This document shows positions 23,935 to 42,962 of a DNA stretch of 50,406 nt, one piece after another. Each line of letters begins with the position of its first letter. The first letter of the stretch is position 1. The DNA comes from a virus (taxonomy: Duplodnaviria; Caudoviricetes): the IMG/VR virus record IMGVR_UViG_3300044477_000062, positions 1-50,406 of that record; one strand, 5' to 3'. The position numbers were made by a program, and so were the translations under genes. The notes under the pieces are model-generated. The model saw nothing but the letters and a program-made list of their open reading frames with translations, did no database searches and was not told the origin of the DNA.

Positions 23935-24480
23935 TTATTTTGATCCTTTCTTGTGAAAAACAGCGGCACCATTTAATTTTTCGGTGAACAAATCGACCAC
24001 ATCAACTGTATCGCTGTGCAGTCCAGTAAACCGCATGCAAACGTCATAGATGTACTTGTGTGCCGGGTGGATCAAATCATCGACAATCATACACCCGCCC
24101 GGATTAAGCTTGTCCCATGCGTTTTCCATGTCGATTGTGCAGCCTTGCTCGGAATGATCGCCATCAACAAGGATTAAATCGAATGTTGATTCCAGATCAT
24201 AGATAAGAATCTTGCTATCTCCATCCAGGAAGCGAACCTCTCCGGCAAACTTCTCTTGTGTCAAAACTCCATGAATATGAAGATGGCTATTCCGACTTGT
24301 CCCGCCGAATTCACCGCCCCAGGTATCACACAAAACCAGTGAGGTGATATTTCTATTTGCATCCGCACGCAAAACAGTGCGAAGTGAATTTCCCTCCTGT
24401 ACACCTATTTCCAGATATGATTTAGGCTGCTTTTTCTCGACGACACGTCTGAGTACATCGTATAAATTCAGGTCCATCAT
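23935..24480 (-). CDS. Class I SAM-dependent methyltransferase (Methyltransf_24-like)
   Basis: YLEIGVQEGNS, FDLILVDGDHS, LNPGGCMIVDD. Confidence 0.88.
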   Translation of the reverse strand: MMDLNLYDVLRRVVEKKQPKSYLEIGVQEGNSLRTVLRADANRNITSLVLCDTWGGEFGGTSRNSHLHIHGVLTQEKFAGEVRFLDGDSKILIYDLESTFDLILVDGDHSEQGCTIDMENAWDKLNPGGCMIVDDLIHPAHKYIYDVCMRFTGLHSDTVDVVDLFTEKLNGAAVFHKKGSK

Positions 24481-25742
24481 ATAACACCCTCCTGTTTAAA
24501 CTCACCAATCGCCCTTGTAAATTCATTTCTAACCCGGTTAAAATCCCAGTTATTACGAGCATAATACGAAATGCGATCACCGCGATCTCTCCACCAGTCT
24601 ATTGTTTTATAAACATATAGCATTTTTTGCATCAGATGATCTACGGAACAAGATGCATCATACCCGGTCGATTCAAGATTAAATCCATACCGAAAATCTT
24701 TGCCTATGTTTCTGTAAAGTCCGGACTTTTCATGAAGATCAGCAATAAAATTGTGGATTGTTCCGCGTAAAGTTTTAGGCACATCAGTCCAACCATTCAC
24801 ACCAAACTCTTTGCAGCCATTCGAAACCCGTTCGATTCGCTTCGGCCAGTGGTGAACCTTTAAACCTTTTCCGAAATTGTATTCAATCCCAATCGGAGTA
24901 ATTGCGAAGTGCTTATAGCACCAATTAGTTGGTGATTTAGTCAATTCGTAATTTATCGGAACGCACCAGTTCGGATCCAGATATGGAAAGCTCCAATTTG
25001 TCAAAATTACCGGTTTACCCATTGCCATTTGTTCAAGCGGGATATATCCAAAACCTTCACCTCGGGATGGATTGACACAGCAGTCCATTTTAGAAAGAAG
25101 ATTGTGCATTTCCTCTTTTGAAAGCGTTTCTGATATGTGAAAAATTCCCGGTTCAGCTTCAATGTTGTCCAGTTTAATATCAAAGTTCTCATGTGGCCGA
25201 TATTTTAAATAGAGCCTGACCGAATTGTCAAAAGCCCCAATTGATTTCAGATTTCTAAAAGCCTGTTCAACTACCCCTGCACCTTTTCGACCATTTGGAT
25301 CATAGTGATGGCCTTGCCAGTAGAAATTAAAACCATCGTGCTCGACAGGCGGCATATAATTAAATTCGTTTTTATCGATTCCGAGTGTGGCAATTTTAAT
25401 AGGCTTTGTCACACCAGAAAGCCTGAATACATCAAAGCAAAATTGAGTCGGTACGATTATTCCGTCAACGTGATTATTGAGGAAATTAACCCAAGCCTTA
25501 GGCATTTGAGTTGATTCAAACATCGTGTATGCGATTAAAGGCAATCCGGTTTTTTTTAATTCTTTTGGATTGTGATGGAGTGGGATATTGCAGTATAGTC
25601 TACATTCGGACTGATCGGTAACATTGTCGGTTGCAGCATCGCCAATACATCTGTAAATCTGCTTTACTGCCCGATTATATCCTACAAAGTCAGCTGATTT
25701 TCCGAACGCTTCAGGCCAGTATATCGAATGAGTATTTAACAT
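24477..25742 (-). CDS. GT-B glycosyltransferase (GT4-like)
   Basis: YTMFES, RKG, PSRGEGFGYIPLEQMAMGKPVI (E-x7-E motif). Confidence 0.9.
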   Translation of the reverse strand: MLNTHSIYWPEAFGKSADFVGYNRAVKQIYRCIGDAATDNVTDQSECRLYCNIPLHHNPKELKKTGLPLIAYTMFESTQMPKAWVNFLNNHVDGIIVPTQFCFDVFRLSGVTKPIKIATLGIDKNEFNYMPPVEHDGFNFYWQGHHYDPNGRKGAGVVEQAFRNLKSIGAFDNSVRLYLKYRPHENFDIKLDNIEAEPGIFHISETLSKEEMHNLLSKMDCCVNPSRGEGFGYIPLEQMAMGKPVILTNWSFPYLDPNWCVPINYELTKSPTNWCYKHFAITPIGIEYNFGKGLKVHHWPKRIERVSNGCKEFGVNGWTDVPKTLRGTIHNFIADLHEKSGLYRNIGKDFRYGFNLESTGYDASCSVDHLMQKMLYVYKTIDWWRDRGDRISYYARNNWDFNRVRNEFTRAIGEFKQEGVI

Positions 25743-25763
25743 TTTTCTCCTTTTTACCCGATT

Positions 25764-25784
25764 AAGAAAAGGGGATTTCTCCCC
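25764..25784 (-). terminator. Intrinsic terminator after the major tail protein
   Basis: GGGGA-GAAA-TCCCC followed by TTTTCTT on the minus strand. Confidence 0.7.
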
Positions 25785-25789
25785 GATTC

Positions 25790-26323
25790 TTATAAAGAAG
25801 CAAGTGGAATTGGCTCTTCCAAACGAAAGTACTTTCCGTTTGTGTTAAGCAGGACTTTAAACGTTACAGGAAGTAGCGTTTCGGTACCACGCTTAAACGT
25901 CTGCGCAGTCTGGCCAATACGAATAGTGCGCGCAAATGTTACCCTGCGGCCCATTGTTTTGTCCATTGCACTCATACCGGTAATTACAAGAGTTTTTGGA
26001 GTCACTCCCATTTCCGGGCCAAAATCAAACAGAATTGAACTGGACGAACTGGAAGAGCTTGACGTGTTGGCACCAAGAGCAATACACAGATTAGTCGCAG
26101 TGTTCTGTTCGAGAATGGTATTGACCGACATTTCGGCACTCATCACCTCGCCGTCAATTTCACCAAGAGCGTAATCAGACCGGGTAAATGAATGAGTCTC
26201 GTTGTATGTTAGCGTCACACCGTCGCGGAATGATCCAAGGTTGATTCCGTCAAGAGTGATCTTTCCGGCTCCCTGAATAATCTGCGACGTGTTAGGCGTA
26301 ACGGTTCCGTTTACATTGGGCAT
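25790..26323 (-). CDS. Major tail (tube) protein with a 9-Ser insertion
   Basis: IIQGAG...LG...DGVTLTY pattern, LLPVTFKVL; strong RBS and downstream terminator; upstream of chaperone/TMP. Confidence 0.8.
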   Translation of the reverse strand: MPNVNGTVTPNTSQIIQGAGKITLDGINLGSFRDGVTLTYNETHSFTRSDYALGEIDGEVMSAEMSVNTILEQNTATNLCIALGANTSSSSSSSSSILFDFGPEMGVTPKTLVITGMSAMDKTMGRRVTFARTIRIGQTAQTFKRGTETLLPVTFKVLLNTNGKYFRLEEPIPLASL

Positions 26324-26334
26324 GTAAACCCCCT

Positions 26335-29300
26335 TTAGTTAATTATGTTATTATACCAGATAGAGATTTCGACGGATACGGCAGCAAACGGCGAACCTTG
26401 AACTGGTAAATAAAAGTCTGAATCTGTCAATATTACATCATTTGCATAGCCCCCACACATAGGATCTGATGCAATTAAATTTTCTATATCTTTTAAAGCG
26501 AACAAAAGAGCGCTTCGAACTGATACACTTTCATGTTTTGAAACCCATAGCTCAATATGCAAAGTCATATCGCAACGATAATTTGAACTGCTCCCCTGTA
26601 AATCGTACGGGATTCTTCCAGGCGCATATACCAGAGCTGGAAAAGTTGTAATTGTTTGCGGTACTAATTCAGCTTCGTATACTTTTCTGACATTTGTAAA
26701 ATACGAGTGCTGACAATTTACAGTCCATGAGTCACCAACTGCAAAATTGACTATTCCGACGCCGCTAAATTTTATTTTGGCACCTCTGCGACCAAGCTCT
26801 ATTGCGACGCCATCATTGATAACAACCGGCGTTAAAACAGAATCGGTATTGTTTGAATCGGATATGATACACCTTGCAACACCCAAAACACCTGCTGTTG
26901 ATATTGTTACAGTGTAAGACCTGTCAATTGTCGATTCGTAAAGTCCGCTTGTAACAACACTTAATCCTTCATTGAACGTATTTCCTGAACCTGGTACCGG
27001 ACTGGATATATTATAAATTGAATTAAATCTGGTTCCGAAATAGCTTAGAATGCTGTCGGCAATGTGTGGTATGAATGAACTATCTTCCCCAGATGGACTT
27101 GCACTTGCTGAATTACTTGCACTTACTGAGGGACTATTGCTTGTTGAGCTCGATGGTGAAGCTGATACACTTGACGACATTGAAGTGCTTGGTGAATTAC
27201 TAATGCTTGATGACGGGCTATTGCTTGGTGAAGCAGATGTTGACAAGCTACTGCTATTTGATATGCTCGAACTTGGCGAAGTTGAAGGGCTTGAACTAAT
27301 AGAACTTGACTGGCTCGTGCTCAGTGATGCGCTCAGACTTGAGCTTTGTGAACTTGACACACTCGTACTAGGTGAATTACTCGCTGATGACGAAGTTGAT
27401 GCGCTCTGAGATGATGACATGCTTGCAGAGGGAGAATTTGAAAGGCTACTGCTCGGTGAAGCTGACGAACTCGCACTTGTTGAAGATGACGGTGACGGGC
27501 TCGAACTAGGACTATTTGACAGGCTTGCGCTAGTTGACGGCGAACTACTCGGAGAGTTAGAAAGTGATGCACTAGGAGAACTTGACTGACTTGCGCTCAG
27601 AGAACTGCTTGTGCTACTGCTTGACGATGCACTTGGACTTGCTGATGGGCTGCTTGACGGTGAGCTGCTAACTGAAGCGCTCTGGCTACTCGAAATAGAA
27701 GCTGATGGAGATGTTGACGAGCTTGCACTCGGACTACTCGAAGGAGAGGTTGATGGGCTGTTAGAGGGGCTGTGTGACGACGATGAACTTGGAGAACTCG
27801 AAGCTGAAGCACTCGGGCTACTTGACACACTGCTCGATGGCGAGCCGCTTGCAGATGTTGATGGGCTACTTGAACTTGACGCGCTAGTACTAGACGAGGT
27901 ACTTCCTGAAGAACTCGCACTTGTACTTGATGAAGGAGACGATTCTAATGAAGGTCCGTCTAGTCCATAGTCAACCAATGTATTGTATACAGCTCCAGCC
28001 AGCTCATCTGAACCTGCGCCAGGATGCAATCCGTCGTAAGAATATGCAGGGTTTGATGTTGACCACATAACACCGTTTTGACCAAGATCAATAGCGTATG
28101 TGTTCGCATCGTTTGCAGCAGATACCCCTGAAGCTATGTCGGAAGCCAGGTCTTGATTGAATGGTGTAACTATGACAATTGCCGTGTCTTGACTTGTTGC
28201 AGCCCTCCATAAATCAATCATACTGTGCACGACTGTAGCTACAGAAGACGAATCGTTTGTTCCCTGGTTTACTATTATTACATCAGGAACTGGATTAAGC
28301 AGTCCGTTTACAAGGCGAGATACTCCACTATAGTAATCATCCCAGTGACTTTGAATGTTTGGAACACCGCCATTTCCCGCAGCTATCCAACCAGTTCCAC
28401 CATACCCCAATATACCAAATTCATACCCACATAATTCACCAGTCAAAAATGCCCAACAGTTTACCGCATTATTGCCAGCAATATACCCTGCAGCGCTATC
28501 AACATAAACTCCTTCGGTAATTGAATCACCATAAAATACAGCTAACTTGCTTAGTATGGTTGGCGCAGATATTGTTGCGCCACTGTCAACTGCCATTCCC
28601 AATATGCAAATAGCTGATTCTGGAATATTCCATCTGTCATAAGTCTCAACATTGGTTTTTATAGCAACCTTGATCGTATGACTTCCAGCAGACAAAGAAG
28701 ATGCAACAGTTAAAATACTGCTGTTAATTTGTAAATAAGTCCAATTTGTGGCATTGTCAATTTTTATAGCAAGTATAGGCCAGTTTGATGTTGCTCCAAG
28801 TACAGCAGAAAGCCTATTTGTGTCAATAAGTATTTTAAATGTCGTTCCGGTAAAATTAGCTTTAAAATACGCACCTGGATTTGCTGTTTGAATTCTGTTG
28901 TTGCCAATAATTTTCCAGTTGTATGGAGAAAAGTACGCAGGAGTATTGTCAATGCTGTAAACAGCATCTGTTGAATCGTTGCTGACATAATCAATAGATG
29001 AAACGTATATGTTTCCAATGTTTGCCTTGTAAAAACCAATATATCCTGCGCCAGAATGCGTACTATCTGTAAATGTGTATGTCCACGATACTGGTTCATT
29101 TGATCCAACTGCCCACACTTTAAATTCAAGTGTTGAGCCGTTTGCGCGTAGTCTAAAATTTACCTCTGAGTTTGCTGCGCCATTAAGTTCAGATATGGTC
29201 ATGGAGTTTTGCGAACCCAAAGCCCAAGATCCGCCGTTTCTTCGGAAAAGGTACAAAACCCCACCAGAATATATAATGGTGTACCCAGCTGTCATATCAG

Positions 29301-29535
29301 CACTAGCTCTAAAGAGAGGGAATGCCCATGTTGTTCCATTGGAAGATCTGCAAGTGTATTTAAAATCAACATATGCAGATTGAGGGCATCCCCTAATTTG
29401 ACAAGATGGTCCGTCAGCTGTTGAGTTTGTTATTAAATTTCCGTTTGAATCTACGCTCCACAATCCCCCTAAGTCTTGCAGTCCACGCAACGATCCAACA
29501 GGCTCCCCTGCAAAATCATTTTTATATAACAGCAT
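26335..29535 (-). CDS. Fusion: lectin-like domain + CE2-like SGNH esterase + ~290-aa Ser-rich stalk + tail terminator-like domain
   Basis: GDSITEG, GTND, DGLHP SGNH blocks; S/P/T/A tract; C-terminal FPAL...DIENLIASDPMCGG directly before the MTP gene. Confidence 0.75.
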   Translation of the reverse strand: MLLYKNDFAGEPVGSLRGLQDLGGLWSVDSNGNLITNSTADGPSCQIRGCPQSAYVDFKYTCRSSNGTTWAFPLFRASADMTAGYTIIYSGGVLYLFRRNGGSWALGSQNSMTISELNGAANSEVNFRLRANGSTLEFKVWAVGSNEPVSWTYTFTDSTHSGAGYIGFYKANIGNIYVSSIDYVSNDSTDAVYSIDNTPAYFSPYNWKIIGNNRIQTANPGAYFKANFTGTTFKILIDTNRLSAVLGATSNWPILAIKIDNATNWTYLQINSSILTVASSLSAGSHTIKVAIKTNVETYDRWNIPESAICILGMAVDSGATISAPTILSKLAVFYGDSITEGVYVDSAAGYIAGNNAVNCWAFLTGELCGYEFGILGYGGTGWIAAGNGGVPNIQSHWDDYYSGVSRLVNGLLNPVPDVIIVNQGTNDSSSVATVVHSMIDLWRAATSQDTAIVIVTPFNQDLASDIASGVSAANDANTYAIDLGQNGVMWSTSNPAYSYDGLHPGAGSDELAGAVYNTLVDYGLDGPSLESSPSSSTSASSSGSTSSSTSASSSSSPSTSASGSPSSSVSSSPSASASSSPSSSSSHSPSNSPSTSPSSSPSASSSTSPSASISSSQSASVSSSPSSSPSASPSASSSSSTSSSLSASQSSSPSASLSNSPSSSPSTSASLSNSPSSSPSPSSSTSASSSASPSSSLSNSPSASMSSSQSASTSSSASNSPSTSVSSSQSSSLSASLSTSQSSSISSSPSTSPSSSISNSSSLSTSASPSNSPSSSISNSPSTSMSSSVSASPSSSTSNSPSVSASNSASASPSGEDSSFIPHIADSILSYFGTRFNSIYNISSPVPGSGNTFNEGLSVVTSGLYESTIDRSYTVTISTAGVLGVARCIISDSNNTDSVLTPVVINDGVAIELGRRGAKIKFSGVGIVNFAVGDSWTVNCQHSYFTNVRKVYEAELVPQTITTFPALVYAPGRIPYDLQGSSSNYRCDMTLHIELWVSKHESVSVRSALLFALKDIENLIASDPMCGGYANDVILTDSDFYLPVQGSPFAAVSVEISIWYNNIIN
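27090..27952 (-). repeat. Low-complexity Ser-rich repeat coding region (SPS/SAS/STS units)
   Basis: Direct translation; mixed Ser codons. Confidence 0.95.
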
Positions 29536-30444
29536 CTATTCGCCCCATCCCGGAACTGGTCCGAATTTGTCAATCATCCATTGTAATGGTCTAACCGCTT
29601 TATCCCATGCATTTTCAAGCCATAACTTTTTTGAATACTCTCTGGCTCTATTTACCTGCTTGTCAGATAGTGGATAAGGAAAACCAAAATCACCGCCCTG
29701 AGTTCTGAACATGTGGGCGTACCAGGTTGTTTTGTTCACAACCTGCCGGCCTCCGGAGAGCCATGATTTACAAGATATTTCTGTGCCCATTTGTCCCCAA
29801 GAACCATGCGATTCATCAAGTCCGCCAATATCGAAATATCTCTCTCTATTCATCAAGAAACACGCCCCAAGATTTCCCATCACGTCGCAGATGTCTCCGT
29901 TTGCTTCTGGTCTGCGATCGTATTCTTTCCAATATTGGAAATGCAAATCTGAGTCAAATCGCATAAAATCAGAGCGTCTATTCAATCGCGGCTTCCAAAC
30001 AATGTCACGCTCAAATTCAATCGACTCGCATTTTGTACATTTGTCTGGAGTTCTGCCCTGATAAGTTCTGTTTCCGCACGATTTACAAACCCAATCAAAA
30101 ACGTGCAAGTTGTAAAGTCTTGGAACCACAGTCCAGTTGTATTCGATATTACTGAGTAGTTTTACATCAAAACCTTCATCGAATGAACAGTGTGCGTCGC
30201 ATTTCATTATGTACTTTGCAGTTGACAGTCTAGCAGCTTCGTTGGTAGCTGCTCGTTGTCCTACAGATTCGGCATGATGCACTATGTGAACGTCTTTATG
30301 GTCTGGAATTGGAGTAATAGGCCAATATCCATCAAGAACAACAATAATTTCAGTGTTGCCACGTTTGTTTTTTAGAATATCGTCAATCGTATTCTGTAAA
30401 AACATTTCGTTGCGGGCAGGGATTAAAATTGATAAGTCTCTCAT
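29536..30444 (-). CDS. GT-A glycosyltransferase (GT2/GT27-like) with CxxC-CxxC insert; start MRDLSIL
   Basis: LSILIPARNE, KCDAHC, WG..GTEISCKSWLSGG...AHMFR. Confidence 0.88.
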   Translation of the reverse strand: MRDLSILIPARNEMFLQNTIDDILKNKRGNTEIIVVLDGYWPITPIPDHKDVHIVHHAESVGQRAATNEAARLSTAKYIMKCDAHCSFDEGFDVKLLSNIEYNWTVVPRLYNLHVFDWVCKSCGNRTYQGRTPDKCTKCESIEFERDIVWKPRLNRRSDFMRFDSDLHFQYWKEYDRRPEANGDICDVMGNLGACFLMNRERYFDIGGLDESHGSWGQMGTEISCKSWLSGGRQVVNKTTWYAHMFRTQGGDFGFPYPLSDKQVNRAREYSKKLWLENAWDKAVRPLQWMIDKFGPVPGWGE

Positions 30445-31166
30445 ACCGAAAACCTTCCCCATGGTGCAAGGTCGTAAGTAGCAAGGGATTCTTTTGCCCT
30501 GCGAAAACCGGTAAAGTTTTGACCGTTACGTATGTCAATATTTGGCAGATCTGTTTTAAATGTCATACAAGTCTGCTCATATTCACAAACGTATTTCAAA
30601 CCTCTAACATTTCCTTTATCATCAACAAAGCATGCCCAATCTATAACACCTGGCTCAAATGTCCCAGCTATTTTTCTGCGAATATCTAACCCACTCTTCA
30701 AGGCCTCTACTCTCTCTTTTAAGTTATCAATTAGAGGCTGTCTGTTACTAACAAGTTGACTGAGTGCAAATCTTGATTTTGATGGAGGGAAGTACATCCC
30801 TTTTCTTTTGCTTTTATCTGACCAGTCGAGAAACCAGTGGTTTGTATTGTAATAAAAAAAATCTCCACCGCTTGGCACTAATTCAAAATGCTCCTTTGTG
30901 TAAAGAACATCGTGCTCGCAAAGGTAAACAATATCTGCATCAGTTGATTCGAGTCCAGCAAGAATCTGTAAATAGATATTTATATATGAACGTCCAAGCC
31001 GACCCATACAAATGTTTTTTCCAAAACCTGCAGGATGCACAACTGGTTTTTGACTAACTGAAATGATCGGTATTCCGTTTGAATTCTGCAATAATACCTT
31101 GCGACACTTGAGTGCAAGAGGCCATTGCAGGTTATTGTCGGTATAGTAAATTATGGCTTTTTTCAT
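30441..31166 (-). CDS. Putative GT-A fold glycosyltransferase
   Basis: ADIVYLCEHDVLY (DxD-like), GT-A-like N-terminus, adjacency to the GT2-like gene. Confidence 0.65.
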   Translation of the reverse strand: MKKAIIYYTDNNLQWPLALKCRKVLLQNSNGIPIISVSQKPVVHPAGFGKNICMGRLGRSYINIYLQILAGLESTDADIVYLCEHDVLYTKEHFELVPSGGDFFYYNTNHWFLDWSDKSKRKGMYFPPSKSRFALSQLVSNRQPLIDNLKERVEALKSGLDIRRKIAGTFEPGVIDWACFVDDKGNVRGLKYVCEYEQTCMTFKTDLPNIDIRNGQNFTGFRRAKESLATYDLAPWGRFSV

Positions 31167-31687
31167 TTCTTTACCCCGTAGAATCTCAAATCAAATTCCG
31201 TCATATCAATATCGAATTTGTACTCGCTGAAATATTCATCAACATTCACAAGGCCTCTAAAGTACTCAACCGAAATATTCTTATAATAATCATTCGTAAA
31301 TGGTGATGACTCAGGATGTTTTGTTGTGCCGTGCTCTTCTCTGCCTATTGTTGCACATGTAAACATGAATAGACCGCCACTTTTCAACATTCTTATAATG
31401 TTAAATAGAGTTGACGGTAAATATTTATCATGCTCAAAAGCTTCGCACGAAACAATACAATCAAAAAAGCCATCTGAAAAAGTCAATTTGTGAGCATGTG
31501 AAACCAGATCAACACCGCGGCCCTTTCCGATATCGCACCCAATATAAAATTGAGAAGAAAAGAACCTTCTACAACTTCCATTGATGTCAAGAGAACCTAT
31601 TTCGAGCACCTTAGATTCTTTTGAGAAAAAAGATGGAAATAGTTTTCTTACCGATCGAATGTATTCTCTTTGTGCTTTATGACTCAT
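31163..31687 (-). CDS. Class I SAM-dependent methyltransferase (Methyltransf_11-like)
   Basis: VLEIGSLDING, FDCIVSCEAFEH, MLKSGG. Confidence 0.88.
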   Translation of the reverse strand: MSHKAQREYIRSVRKLFPSFFSKESKVLEIGSLDINGSCRRFFSSQFYIGCDIGKGRGVDLVSHAHKLTFSDGFFDCIVSCEAFEHDKYLPSTLFNIIRMLKSGGLFMFTCATIGREEHGTTKHPESSPFTNDYYKNISVEYFRGLVNVDEYFSEYKFDIDMTEFDLRFYGVKK

Positions 31688-31998: not shown

Positions 31999-34077
31999 TT
32001 ACATCCTTTTAAAAAAGTAGAATAGTCGTGAAGACAATTGCGGTCCCGTAGTAATCCAAAAATTAGAATTGTCATTGAGTAAATTATTGCGAGTCGATCT
32101 ATAGTTTGCATCACGCGGCGAAGAGTGTACAGCAACATAAGATATAATTCCCTTATAGTAAGCTGCTGATTGTCTTCCTGTATTTGTAAACAGAGTGTAA
32201 TAAGCGTTACCTGTAAAGGAAATTGTTCTGTTTGCAAGCCTTCCGGGTTCAGACCTGTTGTCAACATAAGGGTAGACCCCATCACTATTCCAAGTTACCA
32301 TAGTATAGTGCCAAGAGCTATCAAAAGTACTCGAATCATACGTTGACAAGTAGGTTGTAGAACTTGATTGAGTAATATAAGTATATTGAGTCGCTTTATT
32401 AGATACGTTAGCTTGATAAATTCCAATACGGTTTGCATCACCTGATTGAGCTATGTTGAATAAATACCCGGCATTTGCACTTGACGAATCGCCATAATAC
32501 ATCACTTCCATTGTTCCAGATGTCAAGTTGCTTAAAGAGTGTGTCGCTGAAACGTTGTATGCGCAAGAGTTGTAAGACTTTATTCCATACCCAAGAGGTG
32601 CTGTATCAATAACAGTCATGTATTCACCATTTACGACAGACAGATTAGAATTTCCAGCCATATCATTTATTGTCATGACTCGGCTACTGAAATCATAACA
32701 TGCCACAACACCAGCATTTGTAAAAGAAAGGGCTGAATTTACTGTAGTATGGGTCCTGTCACCATATCTTATTTTAATTAATCTATTTCCTACAGTATCA
32801 ACTCTATTTACAAAATGAAGTAGGCCTAATTTTCTAGTTTTGCTGAATCCTGATAGGTAGGAGTTTTTAACATTTCCAGAACTATCAGTAACATATATAT
32901 CTGATCCGTCATCTTTGCATGCAGCCCAGAAAGAATTTCCTGCATTTCTTAAATCGTATACTAAAGGAAACGAGTCAACAACAGATGCAACCGCACGTTG
33001 ATTTACTCTGATATTTATTGTGTTTTTTTCTTTTGTACCTGTCACCGAATTTGTCAGAGCTGCAAGTACTGCATAGTAAAAAGGTTTCTTTACAAAAGAA
33101 GTGCCGTTCCATTTTTTGCACATTGTAGGTGCGCCGTATGTAGCAGTATTGCTGGCGCTTGTACTATCATCGAATCCCCAGAATGTAATGTCCTTGACAC
33201 CACACTTCAGAACTTGTTCAATGTATCCAGCAACACGCTTGCGCTGCGATTCGTATGTCGCTGCAGTGTCGGTGATAGGCGTCGGCATTCTCCAGTCAAG
33301 CTCGGTTATTGCCACATTGTAACCAAGTGATTTTATTCTGTTAATTTGTTTAATTACGCCAGACATTCGCACTACTGAACCAGTATCGGCTGCAAAGTGA
33401 GATTGTAATCCTATCATGTCAATTGGTGTATTCAGAGCCCTTAAATCAGCGAGTGACTTATAAAATCGATTTGCTTTATTTAAACGATCTCCAGTTGTTT
33501 CCATTGCGTATTCATTATAATAAAGAATTGCAAGAGGGTCAGCTGTTCGTGCTGCTCTAAAGCAATGATCCATATAATTAGTAGCGTTGGTTTTCCACCA
33601 GTTGGTAGGGTTTAAATCTTCGTTTACGACATCGTACTCAACTGTATATGTTGGACCTACACTAGTACGTATGTGCTGCATTGTTGCGGCAATGTATTCG
33701 TTTAAAAGCACTTTTACAGTGTCAGATGAGAAACCACCTCCTGAAATCCAAGTAGGTACATAGTTTGACCAAACAAGAGTATTGACATGTATTTTTTTCT
33801 TGTTTGTCATTTCCATAATACGTGCAATAGAACTATCTGTCCAGTTCCAGTTATACGTATTTCTAGCAGTCCATGTATTGACCATGTTTAAACCAACGGA
33901 AACGCGATCAAAAGTAGTGTCGATAAAGTCAATGTATTTCTGATCTATTGCAGCTGAAACTTGGCGCGATATTAAAGAACCGAGTGTTATTCCAGACGCT
34001 GAAGATGCTTTTTGCAGCGTGTCATTAGCGCTCGCAGCACAGCAAAGCAACGTGGTTATTAAAATTATTTTTTTCAT
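31999..34077 (-). CDS. GH10 glycoside hydrolase + DUF2341-like + LamG/ConA-like domains, with signal-peptide-like N-terminus
   Basis: TLVW, YDVVNE (acid/base), YYNEY, GLQSH, ITELD (nucleophile), TFWGF; DGSDIYVTD..G and IRYG motifs. Confidence 0.85.
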   Translation of the reverse strand: MKKIILITTLLCCAASANDTLQKASSASGITLGSLISRQVSAAIDQKYIDFIDTTFDRVSVGLNMVNTWTARNTYNWNWTDSSIARIMEMTNKKKIHVNTLVWSNYVPTWISGGGFSSDTVKVLLNEYIAATMQHIRTSVGPTYTVEYDVVNEDLNPTNWWKTNATNYMDHCFRAARTADPLAILYYNEYAMETTGDRLNKANRFYKSLADLRALNTPIDMIGLQSHFAADTGSVVRMSGVIKQINRIKSLGYNVAITELDWRMPTPITDTAATYESQRKRVAGYIEQVLKCGVKDITFWGFDDSTSASNTATYGAPTMCKKWNGTSFVKKPFYYAVLAALTNSVTGTKEKNTINIRVNQRAVASVVDSFPLVYDLRNAGNSFWAACKDDGSDIYVTDSSGNVKNSYLSGFSKTRKLGLLHFVNRVDTVGNRLIKIRYGDRTHTTVNSALSFTNAGVVACYDFSSRVMTINDMAGNSNLSVVNGEYMTVIDTAPLGYGIKSYNSCAYNVSATHSLSNLTSGTMEVMYYGDSSSANAGYLFNIAQSGDANRIGIYQANVSNKATQYTYITQSSSTTYLSTYDSSTFDSSWHYTMVTWNSDGVYPYVDNRSEPGRLANRTISFTGNAYYTLFTNTGRQSAAYYKGIISYVAVHSSPRDANYRSTRNNLLNDNSNFWITTGPQLSSRLFYFFKRM

Positions 34078-35899: not shown

Positions 35900-36838
35900 T
35901 TACTCCAATACTGGACGACTGAGGGCCTCGCCTAGAATAAGTGTTCCTGATGATACAAATGACCCGGATGTGCCAACGCTTACAAATTTCCCCCGGATAT
36001 ATCGCTTGACCGATCGCAAATCAACGTCCTTTACAGAAAAAATACCAGCTGAATGGGTTGCACTTGAAAATGACCCTCCAGAAATATTTTGAAAGTTGTA
36101 GTGCTTGGAAAATCCAAAGAAGTTATAAGTTACACTATCAGCCCATGTCGACGTGGCCATTGCTTCAAAATTTCCACCCGAAGTAACTGCGTCGGCTGCG
36201 ATTCTAATGTAGTTTGATGAGCTTGCCGTATAATCGCCTGAGATTACAACGTGCAAAACAGTACCAGCTGCAATATCAATTGGCCTGGCAAATGTAAATT
36301 TACGCCATAAGAAAGACGTCGAAACCGAATCAACTGAAAGTGTACAAGCTGCATCGGCATGGGCCAAAGTTCCAGATGGTGCGCCTGAATTGTTTGTTTC
36401 AATTCTACACCAAATTTTCTGAGCACTGGCGATAGTTCCAATTTTTCGAGCCAAAACAGAAATTGAGCTGAGCTGTCGCGCACTGTCCTGCGTAAACTGC
36501 GCCCCGAGTGCGTTTCTGGCTGCATTATCACGTAAGGCAATGGAAGCAGTGTCAGAAAGCGTCTTGTTGTTTAAGTGGCCTATTGTGTCATAATCTGCAT
36601 GCTGTAAAGTAACATAAGTAGTACAAGCAGAACCGGCTGAACTGGCAGCACTCTGAAACACTCCAACACAAGAGAGAAAACCGGATCGATCGTAAACAGG
36701 TGAGCCATAGGTCCCGACCGCAGTAGTTCTAGCTGCTGGAGAAAACAAATAGTAACATCCAATGTCGTTTCCGATTACGTCAGCAATAGCCATTACTGAC
36801 AGAATCAGAATCGAAAAAATTGTGAGTATCTTTTTCAT
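35900..36838 (-). CDS. Putative capsid decoration/cement protein with inserted beta domain; start MKKILT
   Basis: Immediately after MCP; D.SGF.S, V.LQHAD and KRYIR motifs; AAAGGAG RBS. Confidence 0.55.
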   Translation of the reverse strand: MKKILTIFSILILSVMAIADVIGNDIGCYYLFSPAARTTAVGTYGSPVYDRSGFLSCVGVFQSAASSAGSACTTYVTLQHADYDTIGHLNNKTLSDTASIALRDNAARNALGAQFTQDSARQLSSISVLARKIGTIASAQKIWCRIETNNSGAPSGTLAHADAACTLSVDSVSTSFLWRKFTFARPIDIAAGTVLHVVISGDYTASSSNYIRIAADAVTSGGNFEAMATSTWADSVTYNFFGFSKHYNFQNISGGSFSSATHSAGIFSVKDVDLRSVKRYIRGKFVSVGTSGSFVSSGTLILGEALSRPVLE

Positions 36839-36854
36839 AATTTTATCTCCTTTA

Positions 36855-36879
36855 AAGAAAGCGGGTTTTTTACGCCCGC
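36855..36879 (-). terminator. Intrinsic terminator after the major capsid gene
   Basis: GCGGG-loop-CCCGC followed by TTTCTTT on the minus strand. Confidence 0.7.
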
Positions 36880-36907
36880 AATCCCAGGTAAGGTAAGAAA
36901 GAAGCAA

Positions 36908-39357: not shown

Positions 39358-41502
39358 TTAATAAGCCGGAATCTCAACGCACCGGCAGTTTATAGTCTGT
39401 TCAGCAGGCCCGCGCATATCCGATGGATATTGCAGTGTTCCCATTTTCCCAACATCATCCATAAAATTATGTCCGATTTTGACAACGCCAACTTCACCGA
39501 AAACTGTATGGTCATCACGTACATTTTCATCACTCGCAGTTGTCCATTCTATTTTTGTCACACCTTCACCAGATAAAACAGAGTGACGAACAGGAGAAGC
39601 AACCTGAGCAAGTTCAGTGCGTGCTATTGTTAATGTTCGAGCTGGTGACGAAACAAAATTGAATTGCTGCCGGATACGTCCGGAAAGCTCCTGAACAGTT
39701 TCGCCGGCTCTAATTCCATCGGTTAAGTTTGATTTTAATGTATTCCAGAACCGATCTGTTATGCCTGAAATCTTACTTTCCTTTGTGTTTAATATTGTCA
39801 ATACGCGCGGATCGTAAGTAGTCCAGGGCTTAACGCCAAGTAAATTAGAAGCCTCAACAATTGACAGCTCGGCAGCATTATACAGGAATGGTTTTGAAAT
39901 CTTCCTAAGCTTCTCCTGCCACTCCTGATTGTCAAAAAGGATCTGATCAAGTTCAGCTGATGATGGAACCGCTTTTGTAGCAGCTTCAAATGTTTTAAGC
40001 TGCTCTACCCTGAGTTCAAACCAGTACTTTTTAATTTTGGATTGAAACACTGATTCTTCTTTGAAAACATTCTTGATCCAAGATGAAAGTATTTTTTCTT
40101 TCCGATTCTCATTTGACATTCTGATAATTGTCTTTTTGTCACTCTCCTTATCAGAATCAGTTTCCTCTGGATCTTCTTTTGAATCGCTCATATCATCAGA
40201 CAAAGGAACGAGCCCGGCCGGTAGATATCCAACATCGCCCCACGCTACTGTTTCGAATCCTAGACCGAGCCGTTCGTTTATCTGATTGATTCCATAACCC
40301 ATATCAAAGTACCGTTTTGCAATTTCGCTCTTTACACCTGCATTAGTCTGGAGTGCTTCAACTTGCGAAAAGTCAAACATGCAATACATGCCCTGAGCCT
40401 CTTTAATTGATCCATCGAAAATCTTTGCATTGATCACTTCCTCAATATAACGAGCTTCAGGAATAATCTGGTCTTGCCAAAATGCCTTATCAGCCTGCAA
40501 AGCTGTTGCAAGTTGTAAATCTTCGTAAATCGAAGCTTTCATTTTCGGGACGCCATGGCCTGCAAAGGTTTCATCCCGGTTCCACTTACGACCTTCGATA
40601 AATTGCATATCAGAATTGGTATTGGGATTGGGAAGGTAATCTGCGTCATTCTGCAGGATGCCGATCTTACCCGCATTGGTTGGACCTTTGTGCCTGTCTT
40701 CGAAACCAGAACGAAGCTGCTTTACTTTTTCCGGATCGAGAAATTCTTTTATCTTAATAAACCCACCCGGTAAAGCACCATTATCAAACAAAGCCTCGCT
40801 GAACACCTGCGATTTTAAATCCTGTGAGCCAGATTTGTGTGTAACTGTTTCAGGTGCAAGACCGCGATTGGAATAAGGGTTGTAATAATAAAAACGAATG
40901 ATCTGATTGAATTGGTAAAGCTGCTCTTCTAAGCCAACCGATTTATTGCGCTTCCAGCCGATCGCATTTTTGTTATTGTCAAGCTCAAGATTAAAAGCTG
41001 ATGCACCATATGGAATAATCGAATCAGGCAACTTTCCCATTTCGATCGGCTTGTTATTGTTGTCAAGTGCCCAGAATACTTCCCCAGTCAAGCTCACCAG
41101 AATCATGTACGATTCCCAAAGTTGCGACTTGCTCATAAACGGATTTGGCTTATTAAACAAATTGTAAACCGCACCATTTTCCACTATGTCAAAGCCTTCT
41201 GACTTGATATAGACCTGATCTTTTTTGTACAACTTCTCGACTGGAGTAGACCTGATTTTGTCAATTAGTGTTTTGGCATTGCTTTTATCTGACTTGACAA
41301 AAATAAATGGAACTGATTTTAACGCTGTTGATTTTGCCTTGATGCAAGAATAAGTCCAAACATGCTGCTCATATGGTCTTTGTAAATCTGCTTTCTCGTT
41401 GATCAAAAGAAGTGGCTTCATGAATACCCGGGAAGGTAAATTCGGAATGCCATTAAAGAATTTTTCCTCAGTGATTGCACCGTATTTATTAACCATTACC
41501 AT
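39358..41502 (-). CDS. Portal protein fused to a MuF (SPP1 gp7-like) minor head domain
   Basis: HK97 portal motifs (F.NGALPGG, NAGK, DMQFIE.RK, HGVP) plus TIARTE, W.T..D..VR..H, INCRC. Confidence 0.9.
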   Translation of the reverse strand: MVMVNKYGAITEEKFFNGIPNLPSRVFMKPLLLINEKADLQRPYEQHVWTYSCIKAKSTALKSVPFIFVKSDKSNAKTLIDKIRSTPVEKLYKKDQVYIKSEGFDIVENGAVYNLFNKPNPFMSKSQLWESYMILVSLTGEVFWALDNNNKPIEMGKLPDSIIPYGASAFNLELDNNKNAIGWKRNKSVGLEEQLYQFNQIIRFYYYNPYSNRGLAPETVTHKSGSQDLKSQVFSEALFDNGALPGGFIKIKEFLDPEKVKQLRSGFEDRHKGPTNAGKIGILQNDADYLPNPNTNSDMQFIEGRKWNRDETFAGHGVPKMKASIYEDLQLATALQADKAFWQDQIIPEARYIEEVINAKIFDGSIKEAQGMYCMFDFSQVEALQTNAGVKSEIAKRYFDMGYGINQINERLGLGFETVAWGDVGYLPAGLVPLSDDMSDSKEDPEETDSDKESDKKTIIRMSNENRKEKILSSWIKNVFKEESVFQSKIKKYWFELRVEQLKTFEAATKAVPSSAELDQILFDNQEWQEKLRKISKPFLYNAAELSIVEASNLLGVKPWTTYDPRVLTILNTKESKISGITDRFWNTLKSNLTDGIRAGETVQELSGRIRQQFNFVSSPARTLTIARTELAQVASPVRHSVLSGEGVTKIEWTTASDENVRDDHTVFGEVGVVKIGHNFMDDVGKMGTLQYPSDMRGPAEQTINCRCVEIPAY

Positions 41503-42962
41503 ACTATGTAATCTCCTGTAGGCGGCGGAACTTCAAAAGTTAAACAAAGTGCATCAGCACAGTCTGGACTTGACAATCCGCGCTTTTTCATATCTTCTTT
41601 TTTCTCAAGTAAAATCTGTTGTTTGCTGGTGAATCCGTATTCAACAGCAGTCAATTCATCGGTGAGTTCATTGTCTTCGGGTAGTTCAAGACCGGCTTTA
41701 ATTGCGTCCCGAGTCAATCCCCATATTTCAGCACGTTTATTTGCATACTTTTCCTGATCTGATGCGGACGATCCGAAGTTTACTTCTACAACGACACCCA
41801 TTTCAGGGATAAGCTCTTTTAATCTGTCAATAACTCCACCGCCAACACCACCACCGTCTACAAATACATGAGATGGCTTAAATTCTTTATACGCTTCAAA
41901 CACTCTGCCTGCAGTCTGCATTGTATCAAGTCCACGCCACTTTTTAAACGGGTGAACCTTTCTACCTTGACGCATACAAAGAGCATTCTGATCGTCACCA
42001 AAGCGGGCAACATCCACACCGAAAACTGGTTTTATTTTATCCCAGTTTCGAGCAATGAAGTTTTTACAGTTTGCAACGCTGCTGCTTGAAATAAATTGAC
42101 AACTGCCAGCACTTGGAAAAACACCACGGACACGAACGCGGACAAAATCAGAATCCTCACCGAAATCGTCAACCCACTCTTGAATCTGCTCTTTGTTTGT
42201 ACCTTCAACAGTTCTACTATCAATCTGAACAGTATTCCAGCGATGTTTAAACTTTCCGAAACACTCCCGGAATCTGCCTGTTGACCTGGTTGGGTTACCA
42301 AATGCAATCCAAATTATTTCGGTTTCTTTATCAGTCAAAGCACCTTCAGCAACTTCCCAAACGGCATCGGCTATACTTGAGGCTTCGTCGAAAACTAGGA
42401 TGATCCTTTTCTTTGCATTATGCAAACCTGCAAATGCTTCAGTATTGTTCTCGCTCCATGGCACTGCATCGGCCCGCCACTGTTTTTCATGATCGGATTG
42501 ACTTGACACTATCGCGGTAGCAGTAGGTTTAAACCAATGAGAATTTATTGATCGATTAAACCATTTTGTAATTTCAGGCCACGTTTTTGTACGAAGCTGA
42601 TTTTCAGTATTTGCAGTAACAACAATTTTGCAGTCTTCACATGTTGACATTCCCCAGTCAATTATCCACGATATGCATGCAGACTTTCCGATTCCGTGCC
42701 CGGACGAAACGGCTATTTTTAATGGGGTATGAACAGTTTCTGGATTGGATAGGTGAGAACCTATTTTATTGAGGATTTCTTTTTGCCATTGTCGCGGACC
42801 ATCTGAGCCTTCACCGACGAGATCACCTTCGCCCCAGGAATATGTATAATTGACAAATCCAAGTGGGTTGTGTGTGAACTTCCCCATATCCTTGACAAGT
42901 TCTTTATCAAGTGCGGATAAGTTCACAATCAGTGCTCCGATAATTAAAAATAAAATCCTCAT
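41496..42962 (-). CDS. terL: Terminase large subunit
   Basis: SGHGIGKS Walker A, VFDEAS Walker B, GNP, GVDVARFGDD and SPD.ADA nuclease motifs. Confidence 0.93.
   Translation of the reverse strand: MRILFLIIGALIVNLSALDKELVKDMGKFTHNPLGFVNYTYSWGEGDLVGEGSDGPRQWQKEILNKIGSHLSNPETVHTPLKIAVSSGHGIGKSACISWIIDWGMSTCEDCKIVVTANTENQLRTKTWPEITKWFNRSINSHWFKPTATAIVSSQSDHEKQWRADAVPWSENNTEAFAGLHNAKKRIILVFDEASSIADAVWEVAEGALTDKETEIIWIAFGNPTRSTGRFRECFGKFKHRWNTVQIDSRTVEGTNKEQIQEWVDDFGEDSDFVRVRVRGVFPSAGSCQFISSSSVANCKNFIARNWDKIKPVFGVDVARFGDDQNALCMRQGRKVHPFKKWRGLDTMQTAGRVFEAYKEFKPSHVFVDGGGVGGGVIDRLKELIPEMGVVVEVNFGSSASDQEKYANKRAEIWGLTRDAIKAGLELPEDNELTDELTAVEYGFTSKQQILLEKKEDMKKRGLSSPDCADALCLTFEVPPPTGDYIVW

Follow-up and report, generated by a model that had tools for sequence, protein, structure and literature searches.

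The analysed contig encodes a glycosyltransferase (enzyme A) whose fold is closest to that of the polypeptide GalNAc-transferases of family GT27. Its gene directly abuts that of a tail terminator fused to 142 uninterrupted Ser-X repeats, and enzymes of this family are linked to such tracts in phage and cellular loci alike. Given the likeness to the enzymes of animal mucin synthesis and the adjoining 142-repeat tail-connector protein, it is therefore likely that the phage carries sugar-coated stalks on its own particles. With moderate confidence, we assign to enzyme A the role of initiating protein O-glycosyltransferase for virion stalks, with a donor that is probably not GalNAc; that the tract is glycosylated by this cassette is, in our judgement, highly probable. 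The module is real, widespread and undescribed in the literature searched: full-text searches, with subscription journals outside their coverage, returned no published description of this system.

Genomic setting and fold of enzyme A

The window is a contig of its own, 50,406 bases long, from an uncultured phage; a single run, labelled sediment metagenome, was listed as containing it. Of its 83 listed ORFs, 41 were scanned against Pfam and PHROGs. By these scans the phage looks like a siphophage and, with its CI-like repressor, temperate. Genes on the minus strand run from terminase, portal, protease, capsid, head-tail adaptor and neck through GH10, methyltransferase, ORF241, enzyme A, Ser-rich protein and tail tube to GT4, second methyltransferase, tape measure, Dit, Tal and fibre. 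The enzyme A gene (302 aa, 29536–30444) is hence inside the neck-tail morphogenesis operon, a setting evident from its Pfam and PHROG neighbours that the original prediction had missed. Overlaps of the form ATGA chain the genes of a SAM methyltransferase (31163–31687, Pfam/PHROG), ORF241 (30441–31166) and enzyme A, and the TAG stop of enzyme A and the ATG of the 1066-aa Ser-rich ORF (26335–29535) are immediately adjacent, just as had been read from the letters. The ORF caller puts the start of enzyme A upstream, at an ATG at 30462; we take the ATG at 30444 to be correct because of a Shine-Dalgarno-like run (GGGGAAGG), the ATGA overlap with the stop of ORF241 and homologues that begin there. 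Further along the same strand are the tail tube gene (25790–26323, identified from its Atlas model), a GT4-like glycosyltransferase whose cassette membership is not conserved (24477–25742, Pfam) and a Methyltransf_24 methyltransferase (23935–24480, Pfam). A promoter/terminator scan of the window stood at chance (39 versus 32 ± 7; 8 versus 9 ± 3), and there was no RNA dataset among those listed as containing window sequence.

Enzyme A is soluble, with a maximal 19-residue hydropathy of 0.67 and no membrane segment or type II membrane anchor. Its sole Pfam match above cut-offs is PF00535 (GT2), spanning residues 5–110. A search among 4247 candidates gave 3998 relatives of similar length, and one among 3369 gave 2900 longer relatives, both totals including paralogues; no match for enzyme A (tblastn), its paralogue B or ORF241 was found among 50,697 GenBank phage records. 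A profile built from 52 sequences matched GalNAc-T1 in the PDB at E 4.5e-12, against 2.3e-6 for the best protein other than a GalNAc-T (GalT1). The structure model (pLDDT 94.4) retrieved GalNAc-Ts only among the Foldseek PDB matches listed to rank 50, and a fold comparison with 48,161 chains gave GalNAc-T1 at Z 26.9 (rmsd 2.6, 262 aligned) and TgGalNAc-T3 at Z 25.0, versus 18.6 for the next entry, with GT2 folds 8 Z units lower. Given these margins in profile and fold, the likeness is not due to chance. The proposal that the closest solved relatives are GT27 ppGalNAc-Ts, and not GT2 polysaccharide or lipid enzymes, is thus borne out, including by the structural superposition that it called for. 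No GT60 structure stood in the fold lists, an absence that does not speak against GT60. Among the relatives, P0121–P0145 are multi-domain fusions of 786–1203 aa, many with GT-A and Methyltransf_24 in one chain.

All motifs quoted in the original prediction are present: CDAHC at residue 82, CKSC at 120, CTKC at 136, GACF at 193, DESHGSWGQMGTE at 210 and AHMFR at 243. Residue equivalences were read from a HMMER alignment to full-length GalNAc-T2. The DxH motif D83-A84-H85 (30190–30198) aligns with D224-S225-H226, and with H244, equivalent to H359, it makes up the Asp-His-His metal triad at sequence level; all three residues are practically invariant (about 100%) across roughly 600 aligned sequences of A and B. 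A passage in PMC7185993 gives GT27 and GT60, both families of polypeptide Ser/Thr enzymes, as the only ones in which DxH replaces DxD. G193 corresponds to G308, and the segment WGQMGTE (29779–29799; WGGENLE in T2) keeps W331, G332 and E337 as W216, G217 and E222. On the peptide side, F169-Q-Y171 (29932–29940) corresponds to F280-K-W282, in a register for W282 taken from the T1 alignment, as the T2 alignment has a two-residue gap there. H244-M-F246-R247 and the following FGFPY (29674–29715) supply the third metal ligand and the equivalents of F361, R362 and the YTFP catalytic flexible loop. F280, W282 and F361 are described in part of bioRxiv 2020.06.25.171371 as the aromatics of the +1 (proline) pocket.

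The donor side differs: E334, R208 and N335 are replaced by Met219, Thr67 and Gly220, respectively. Excerpts of PMC13071866 name E334 and R208 as donor-specificity residues, and a section of PMC6789641 places the WGGE Glu at the GalNAc and calls it critical for GalNAc-T activity. The loss of this Glu, flagged at the outset, is real; a Glu was found at the position in two of 418 HxFR sequences with the zinc insert. At the level of aligned residues, enzyme A therefore keeps its peptide side (pocket and loop) and has changed its donor side. Retention of the peptide-binding residues holds across the family and supports the original prediction; GalNAc as donor finds no support, since other residues stand at the positions of Glu334, Arg208 and Asn335, and the donor is probably another sugar. 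A 6-deoxy or pentose sugar is our guess, and a doubtful one.

A CxxC...CxxC insert (C120, C123, C136 and C139; 30028–30087), predicted to form a zinc ribbon and with weak rubredoxin/Zn-ribbon Pfam matches, falls between GalNAc-T2 residues 264 and 274 and may lie at the rim of the peptide groove. As expected, enzyme A is without a ricin lectin domain: the model accounts for its 302 residues end to end, and no ricin Pfam was found in it or in the listed longer homologues. With Glu334 and Arg208 replaced, the lectin missing and a four-Cys insert added, enzyme A is best classed as GT27-like and not as GT27.

The candidate acceptor on the tail terminator

The 1066-aa protein encoded directly downstream is the predicted acceptor, composed of an N-terminal domain, a CE2-like SGNH esterase, a Ser-X tract and a tail terminator. 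The tract (residues 533–815; 27091–27939, minus strand) is an unbroken (Ser-X)142 register written in mixed TCN and AGY codons, with S (35), P (30), A (24), T (16), N (10) and others at X. Because five Ser codons are used and the longest Ser-X run in 2000 shuffles was 24, against 142 found, the tract is selected as protein; the same codon usage rules out an origin as a DNA microsatellite. The original label of a mucin-like protein stands as far as a Ser-X acceptor candidate is concerned, but the protein is a tail-terminator fusion, and its repeat resembles that of SRRP adhesins and is nearly Thr-free, not Thr-rich.

The C-terminal 247 residues (26338–27078) are a tail terminator with an inserted beta domain. 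They have 46 relatives, among them stand-alone proteins of 233–282 aa and others, about 150 aa long, with the size of a plain terminator, and 14 of 21 aligned members match the tail terminator phrog_4204 (E 2.4e-5 for this protein, 6.7e-13 at best). The two best PDB matches of the domain profile are tail terminators (E 0.002), the gene directly precedes that of the tail tube, and an Atlas feature search for a terminator gave a lead (scores 0.79–0.80). We rejected the idea that a stand-alone terminator has a start of its own, as there is no ATG, GTG or TTG between residues 790 and 883. One relative (P0242) has a (Ser-X)80 tract of its own on the same terminator domain and another, 50% identical to it (P0243), has none; tract gain or loss therefore took place inside this terminator lineage. 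Contigs of the likely source run, which are not independent, cover terminator, tract and esterase (25500–28776) without differences. The inserted beta domain also occurs in tandem in other proteins of 331–1766 aa.

The esterase-like region (CE2_N plus SGNH/GDSL, 27976–28914, minus strand) scores below the Pfam cut-offs. The neck operon also encodes a GH10 glycoside hydrolase (31999–34077, E 1.2e-46), whose N-terminus looks like a signal peptide and whose C-terminal region is long; together the two domain matches hint at a xylan-like target. The tail tube protein contains a run of nine serines (residues 88–96; 26036–26062), a possible second, small acceptor that would be repeated along the entire tail.

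Linkage of the enzyme family to Ser-X tracts

Family loci were gathered from viral sequences (n = 94: 14 plus the best 80 of 442) and from genomes (best 80 of 126). With the viral loci merged at 90% identity, runs of (S-x) of at least 20 were present in 64 of 78, and in 43 of the 46 that are at least 15 kb long. Loci centred on a terminase served as control and contained no such tract: none of 80 overall, none of the 21 long ones and none of the 32 that include 9 kb downstream had one, the longest run being 7 (Fisher P 1.6e-14; neither P nor the counts are corrected for phylogeny). This control, centred on the terminase only, reaches 10 kb, and the tract of the present contig lies 13.5 kb from its terminase. 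One of the three long viral loci without a (S-x)20 run (L094) has SSTP repeats instead, and variant tracts of this kind also accompany the same enzyme in L072, L299 and L301.

The reciprocal search started from tracts, with a pattern modelled on the family's own repeats, and used 79 distinct listed loci of 128, minus four second loci of one contig and seven contigs already found. Enzyme A was present in 25 of 47 tract loci and in 18 of the 23 long ones, near-identical phages not being merged, versus none of 21 pattern matches without a tract. A generic repeat pattern (80 of 122 loci) retrieved mostly loci without long Ser-X runs (72/80); all three of its contigs with runs of at least 20 carry cassette genes, in one case B and ORF241 with no A in range, against 0/72 with runs below 15. 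The linkage between enzyme and Ser-X proteins is therefore strong in both directions. Exceptions are one tract contig (L104/L105) with B and ORF241 and no A within 10 kb and, among 28 long tract loci, two that show ORF241 only and five with none of the three.

Tract ORFs lie on the strand of the enzyme in 177 of 177 cases, and in 43 of 114 clusters no more than 700 bases separate the stop of the A-bearing ORF from the start of the tract gene. Family tracts are 52% Ser, 16% Pro and 1.8% Thr, with Ser at ±2 in 90%. Of the 105 carrier segments scanned (from 153), 81 match no PHROG; among the 24 that do, 16 include tail, connector or virion labels and eight are of unknown function. The virion-labelled carriers include head closure, Dit, the central fibre J and another terminator family. 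More specifically, the tract is inserted into a Dit protein in L052 (3533–4483), appended to a head-closure protein in L022 (2–1897) and fused to a different terminator family in L083 (17776–18480), which are independent graftings onto core virion parts.

The titles of 42 genome loci name groups that we take to belong to the Patescibacteria lineage. Long loci in cellular genomes carry the tract in 34 of 42 cases, and several of 12 genome loci inspected sit among cellular genes and do not look like phage. In 13 of 80 genome loci (L316, L315, L359 and 10 others), the cassette has a TatC-like gene no more than 10 kb away; Pfam confirms it in three loci, and the tract proteins there are without an obvious signal peptide.

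Two paralogues recur in these loci. Enzyme A has the Cys4 insert, WGQxG and HxFR, versus a kept Glu, an HxHK end and no insert in B. HxFR is found in 52/52 A versus 0/39 B sequences, and the [FYM]x[FW]PY loop in 51/52 versus 0/39, one B row being without the anchor motif. B is present in 74 of 94 viral and 54 of 80 genome loci. The present contig has A and ORF241 and no B, although most relatives have it; 12 long loci with A and tract are likewise without B, which could there sit beyond 10 kb. ORF241, characterized by a hydrophobic strand followed by an invariant E-H-D, is as constant as A (86/94 viral and 73/80 genome loci) and was matched as a fusion with A in 110 of 240 listed homologues. 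It found no useful match in PDB, Pfam or profile searches and has no likeness to A; it is likely a second glycosyltransferase. The GT4 of this phage has a relative in one of 174 family loci. Therefore, with B absent from this contig, neither B nor GT4 is the general initiator.

Proposed pathway, alternatives and known systems

We propose that enzyme A puts the first sugar onto serines of the terminator-fused Ser-X tract, so that the virion neck would carry sugar-coated stalks. In the host cytoplasm, D83, H85 and H244 would bind Mn2+ and a host nucleotide-sugar, and a GalNAc-T-like groove (F169, Y171, F246, R247 and the FGFPY loop), with the Cys4 insert at its rim, would hold the extended Ser-X peptide. 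Transfer would proceed with retention and without a protein base, as in GT27 and GT60, from a donor that is probably not GalNAc because Met219 and Thr67 stand for Glu334 and Arg208. ORF241 and GT4 would lengthen the glycan, and the two methyltransferases would cap it. The tail terminator ring is hexameric in lambda and T5. Here the ring may display about six stiff, protease-resistant stalks, by our own estimate roughly 70–100 nm long if extended, whose esterase-like head would form the tip and meet host or biofilm polysaccharide.

The main rival initiator is ORF241, or B where present, with enzyme A extending or branching the glycan on the same stalk. The division of residues between the paralogues cuts both ways here, as B keeps the WGGE Glu that A has lost, but the peptide-pocket aromatics and flexible loop are found in A and not in B. 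The constancy of ORF241, its frequent fusion to A, and tract loci showing ORF241, or B plus ORF241, without A in range would all suit this order of action; B, however, is absent here and from the 12 long loci mentioned, and by sequence ORF241 resembles neither A nor any solved structure. We consider this order unlikely, though a serious contender. That enzyme A instead modifies a host surface polysaccharide or lipid, in serotype conversion or superinfection exclusion, with the tract gene a mere neighbour, is improbable: no membrane segment, zero-gap coupling within the neck-tail operon, the lower scores of GT2 folds and a two-way tract linkage that extends to cellular genomes outweigh the GT2 Pfam match, the temperate look of the phage and the non-phage-looking Patescibacteria loci.

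GtfB serves GtfA as a chaperone or scaffold. By analogy, a catalytically dead enzyme A might bind the tract for ORF241, as its lost Glu334, Arg208 and Asn335 equivalents and the frequent fusion with ORF241 could suggest; the near-complete conservation of the metal triad makes this very improbable, and retaining GT-As, according to part of PMC7185993, need no protein base or xED acid, the xED position varying among them. Phage glycosyltransferases that modify DNA are known from passages of PMC12619734, but for enzyme A a role in DNA hypermodification is hardly credible, given that its operon is a late structural one, that the 41 annotated ORFs include no base-hydroxylating partner, that the peptide site is conserved and that the family is linked to tracts. 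Initiation on the tract by enzyme A remains our preferred reading.

Among known systems, the GT27 GalNAc-Ts (GalNAc-T1, 1XHB/8V9Q; T2, 2FFU/4D0T; Toxoplasma T3, 8UHV) share the catalytic fold (Z 25–27), the DxH...H triad, W331/G332/E337/G308, F280/W282/F361, R362 with its loop, and a Ser/Pro-rich acceptor. Unlike them, enzyme A has no anchor or ricin lectin, carries the Cys4 insert, has E334, R208 and N335 replaced, is about 20% identical, cytoplasmic and phage-encoded, and faces an acceptor that is nearly Thr-free. Inverting GT2 GT-As differ more plainly, with DxD and the xED Asp where enzyme A has DxH and QMG. PF11397 (Pfam GlcNAc), which we take to represent the GT60 polypeptide alpha-GlcNAc-transferases, gave no match to enzyme A at E ≤ 1 and matched five of 52 relatives weakly (best E 0.013). 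Phage proteins named 'Glycosyltransferase, GlcNAc' held ranks 3–7 of the viral fold search, at 11–14% identity. Excerpts of PMC8724618 and PMC7185993 present GT60 as a lectin-less sister of GT27 with DxH, in prokaryotes and protists; enzyme A likewise has DxH and no lectin domain.

On the acceptor side, the nearest parallel is the SRRP adhesins (Fap1, GspB, PsrP), whose Ser dipeptide repeats, as a section of PMC3068309 describes, are glycosylated in the bacterial cytoplasm to give an extended stalk with a binding head. The (Ser-X)142 tract is such a repeat acceptor. Unlike SRRP systems, with their accessory Sec export and wall anchor, the phage would use a GT27-like GT-A, a virion protein as anchor and Pro-rich X positions. 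In SRRP systems GtfA and GtfB are a GT4 pair; among the 41 ORFs scanned there is no GtfA/GtfB pair, accessory Sec or wall anchor, and one unconserved GT4. In its proposed mode of action the cassette resembles GT27/GT60 and, as regards the acceptor, SRRP systems. It belongs to neither, because enzyme A lacks the WGGE Glu, the lectin and the anchor and is not matched by PF11397. Mycobacteriophage virion glycosylation was reportedly treated by Freeman et al. in 2023. Parts of PMC11256854, PMC12363180 and PMC12619734 describe glycosylation of own capsid and tail proteins by the glycosyltransferases of such phages (Che8 gp108-110, Corndog, Myrna). Comparison with Che8 gp108, gp109 and gp110 showed no family-level likeness (hhalign probability 26.7, 0.5 and 0.4), at a sensitivity that is low because the targets are single sequences; unlike the subunit C-termini of the Che8 type, the acceptor here is a long dedicated tract.

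GT27-type mucin initiation has been reported from animals and apicomplexans, GT60 being the sister family in protists and prokaryotes. The large phage and Patescibacteria family has a fold closer to GT27 than to any other solved GT-A and, if our reading is true, would bear on the origin of mucin-type glycosylation. Many environmental phages would then build a self-made glycocalyx of bottle-brush-like Ser-X tracts on virion proteins, and a small soluble enzyme would be at hand for O-glycoprotein production in bacterial cytoplasm. Tentatively, A and ORF241 may form a portable, lectin-free prokaryotic sister of animal mucin-type O-glycosylation that is cytoplasmic, uses a new donor sugar and recognizes Ser-X in strict register. 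The tract would be grafted onto a chosen virion protein (terminator, head closure, Dit or fibres) by thousands of uncultured phages and used on giant surface proteins by Patescibacteria, the present phage having a minimal version, a glycosylated, esterase-tipped collar on its terminator. This contig adds a tract carried by a core terminator, a register without breaks, the division of residues between A and B, and the absence of B; since there is no paralogue B and the acceptor is fused to an essential tail part, the question can be tested here with few genes.

Several further genes of the contig are unusual. Hydrophobic, signal-like N-termini, possibly from wrong starts, are predicted for the 335-aa ORF after the capsid gene (35900–36907, hydropathy 2.6) and for the large terminase (41496–42962, hydropathy 1.9). 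The portal is joined to a Mu gpF-like head morphogenesis domain (39358–41502), and a helicase is fused to a DNA methyltransferase (246–2735).
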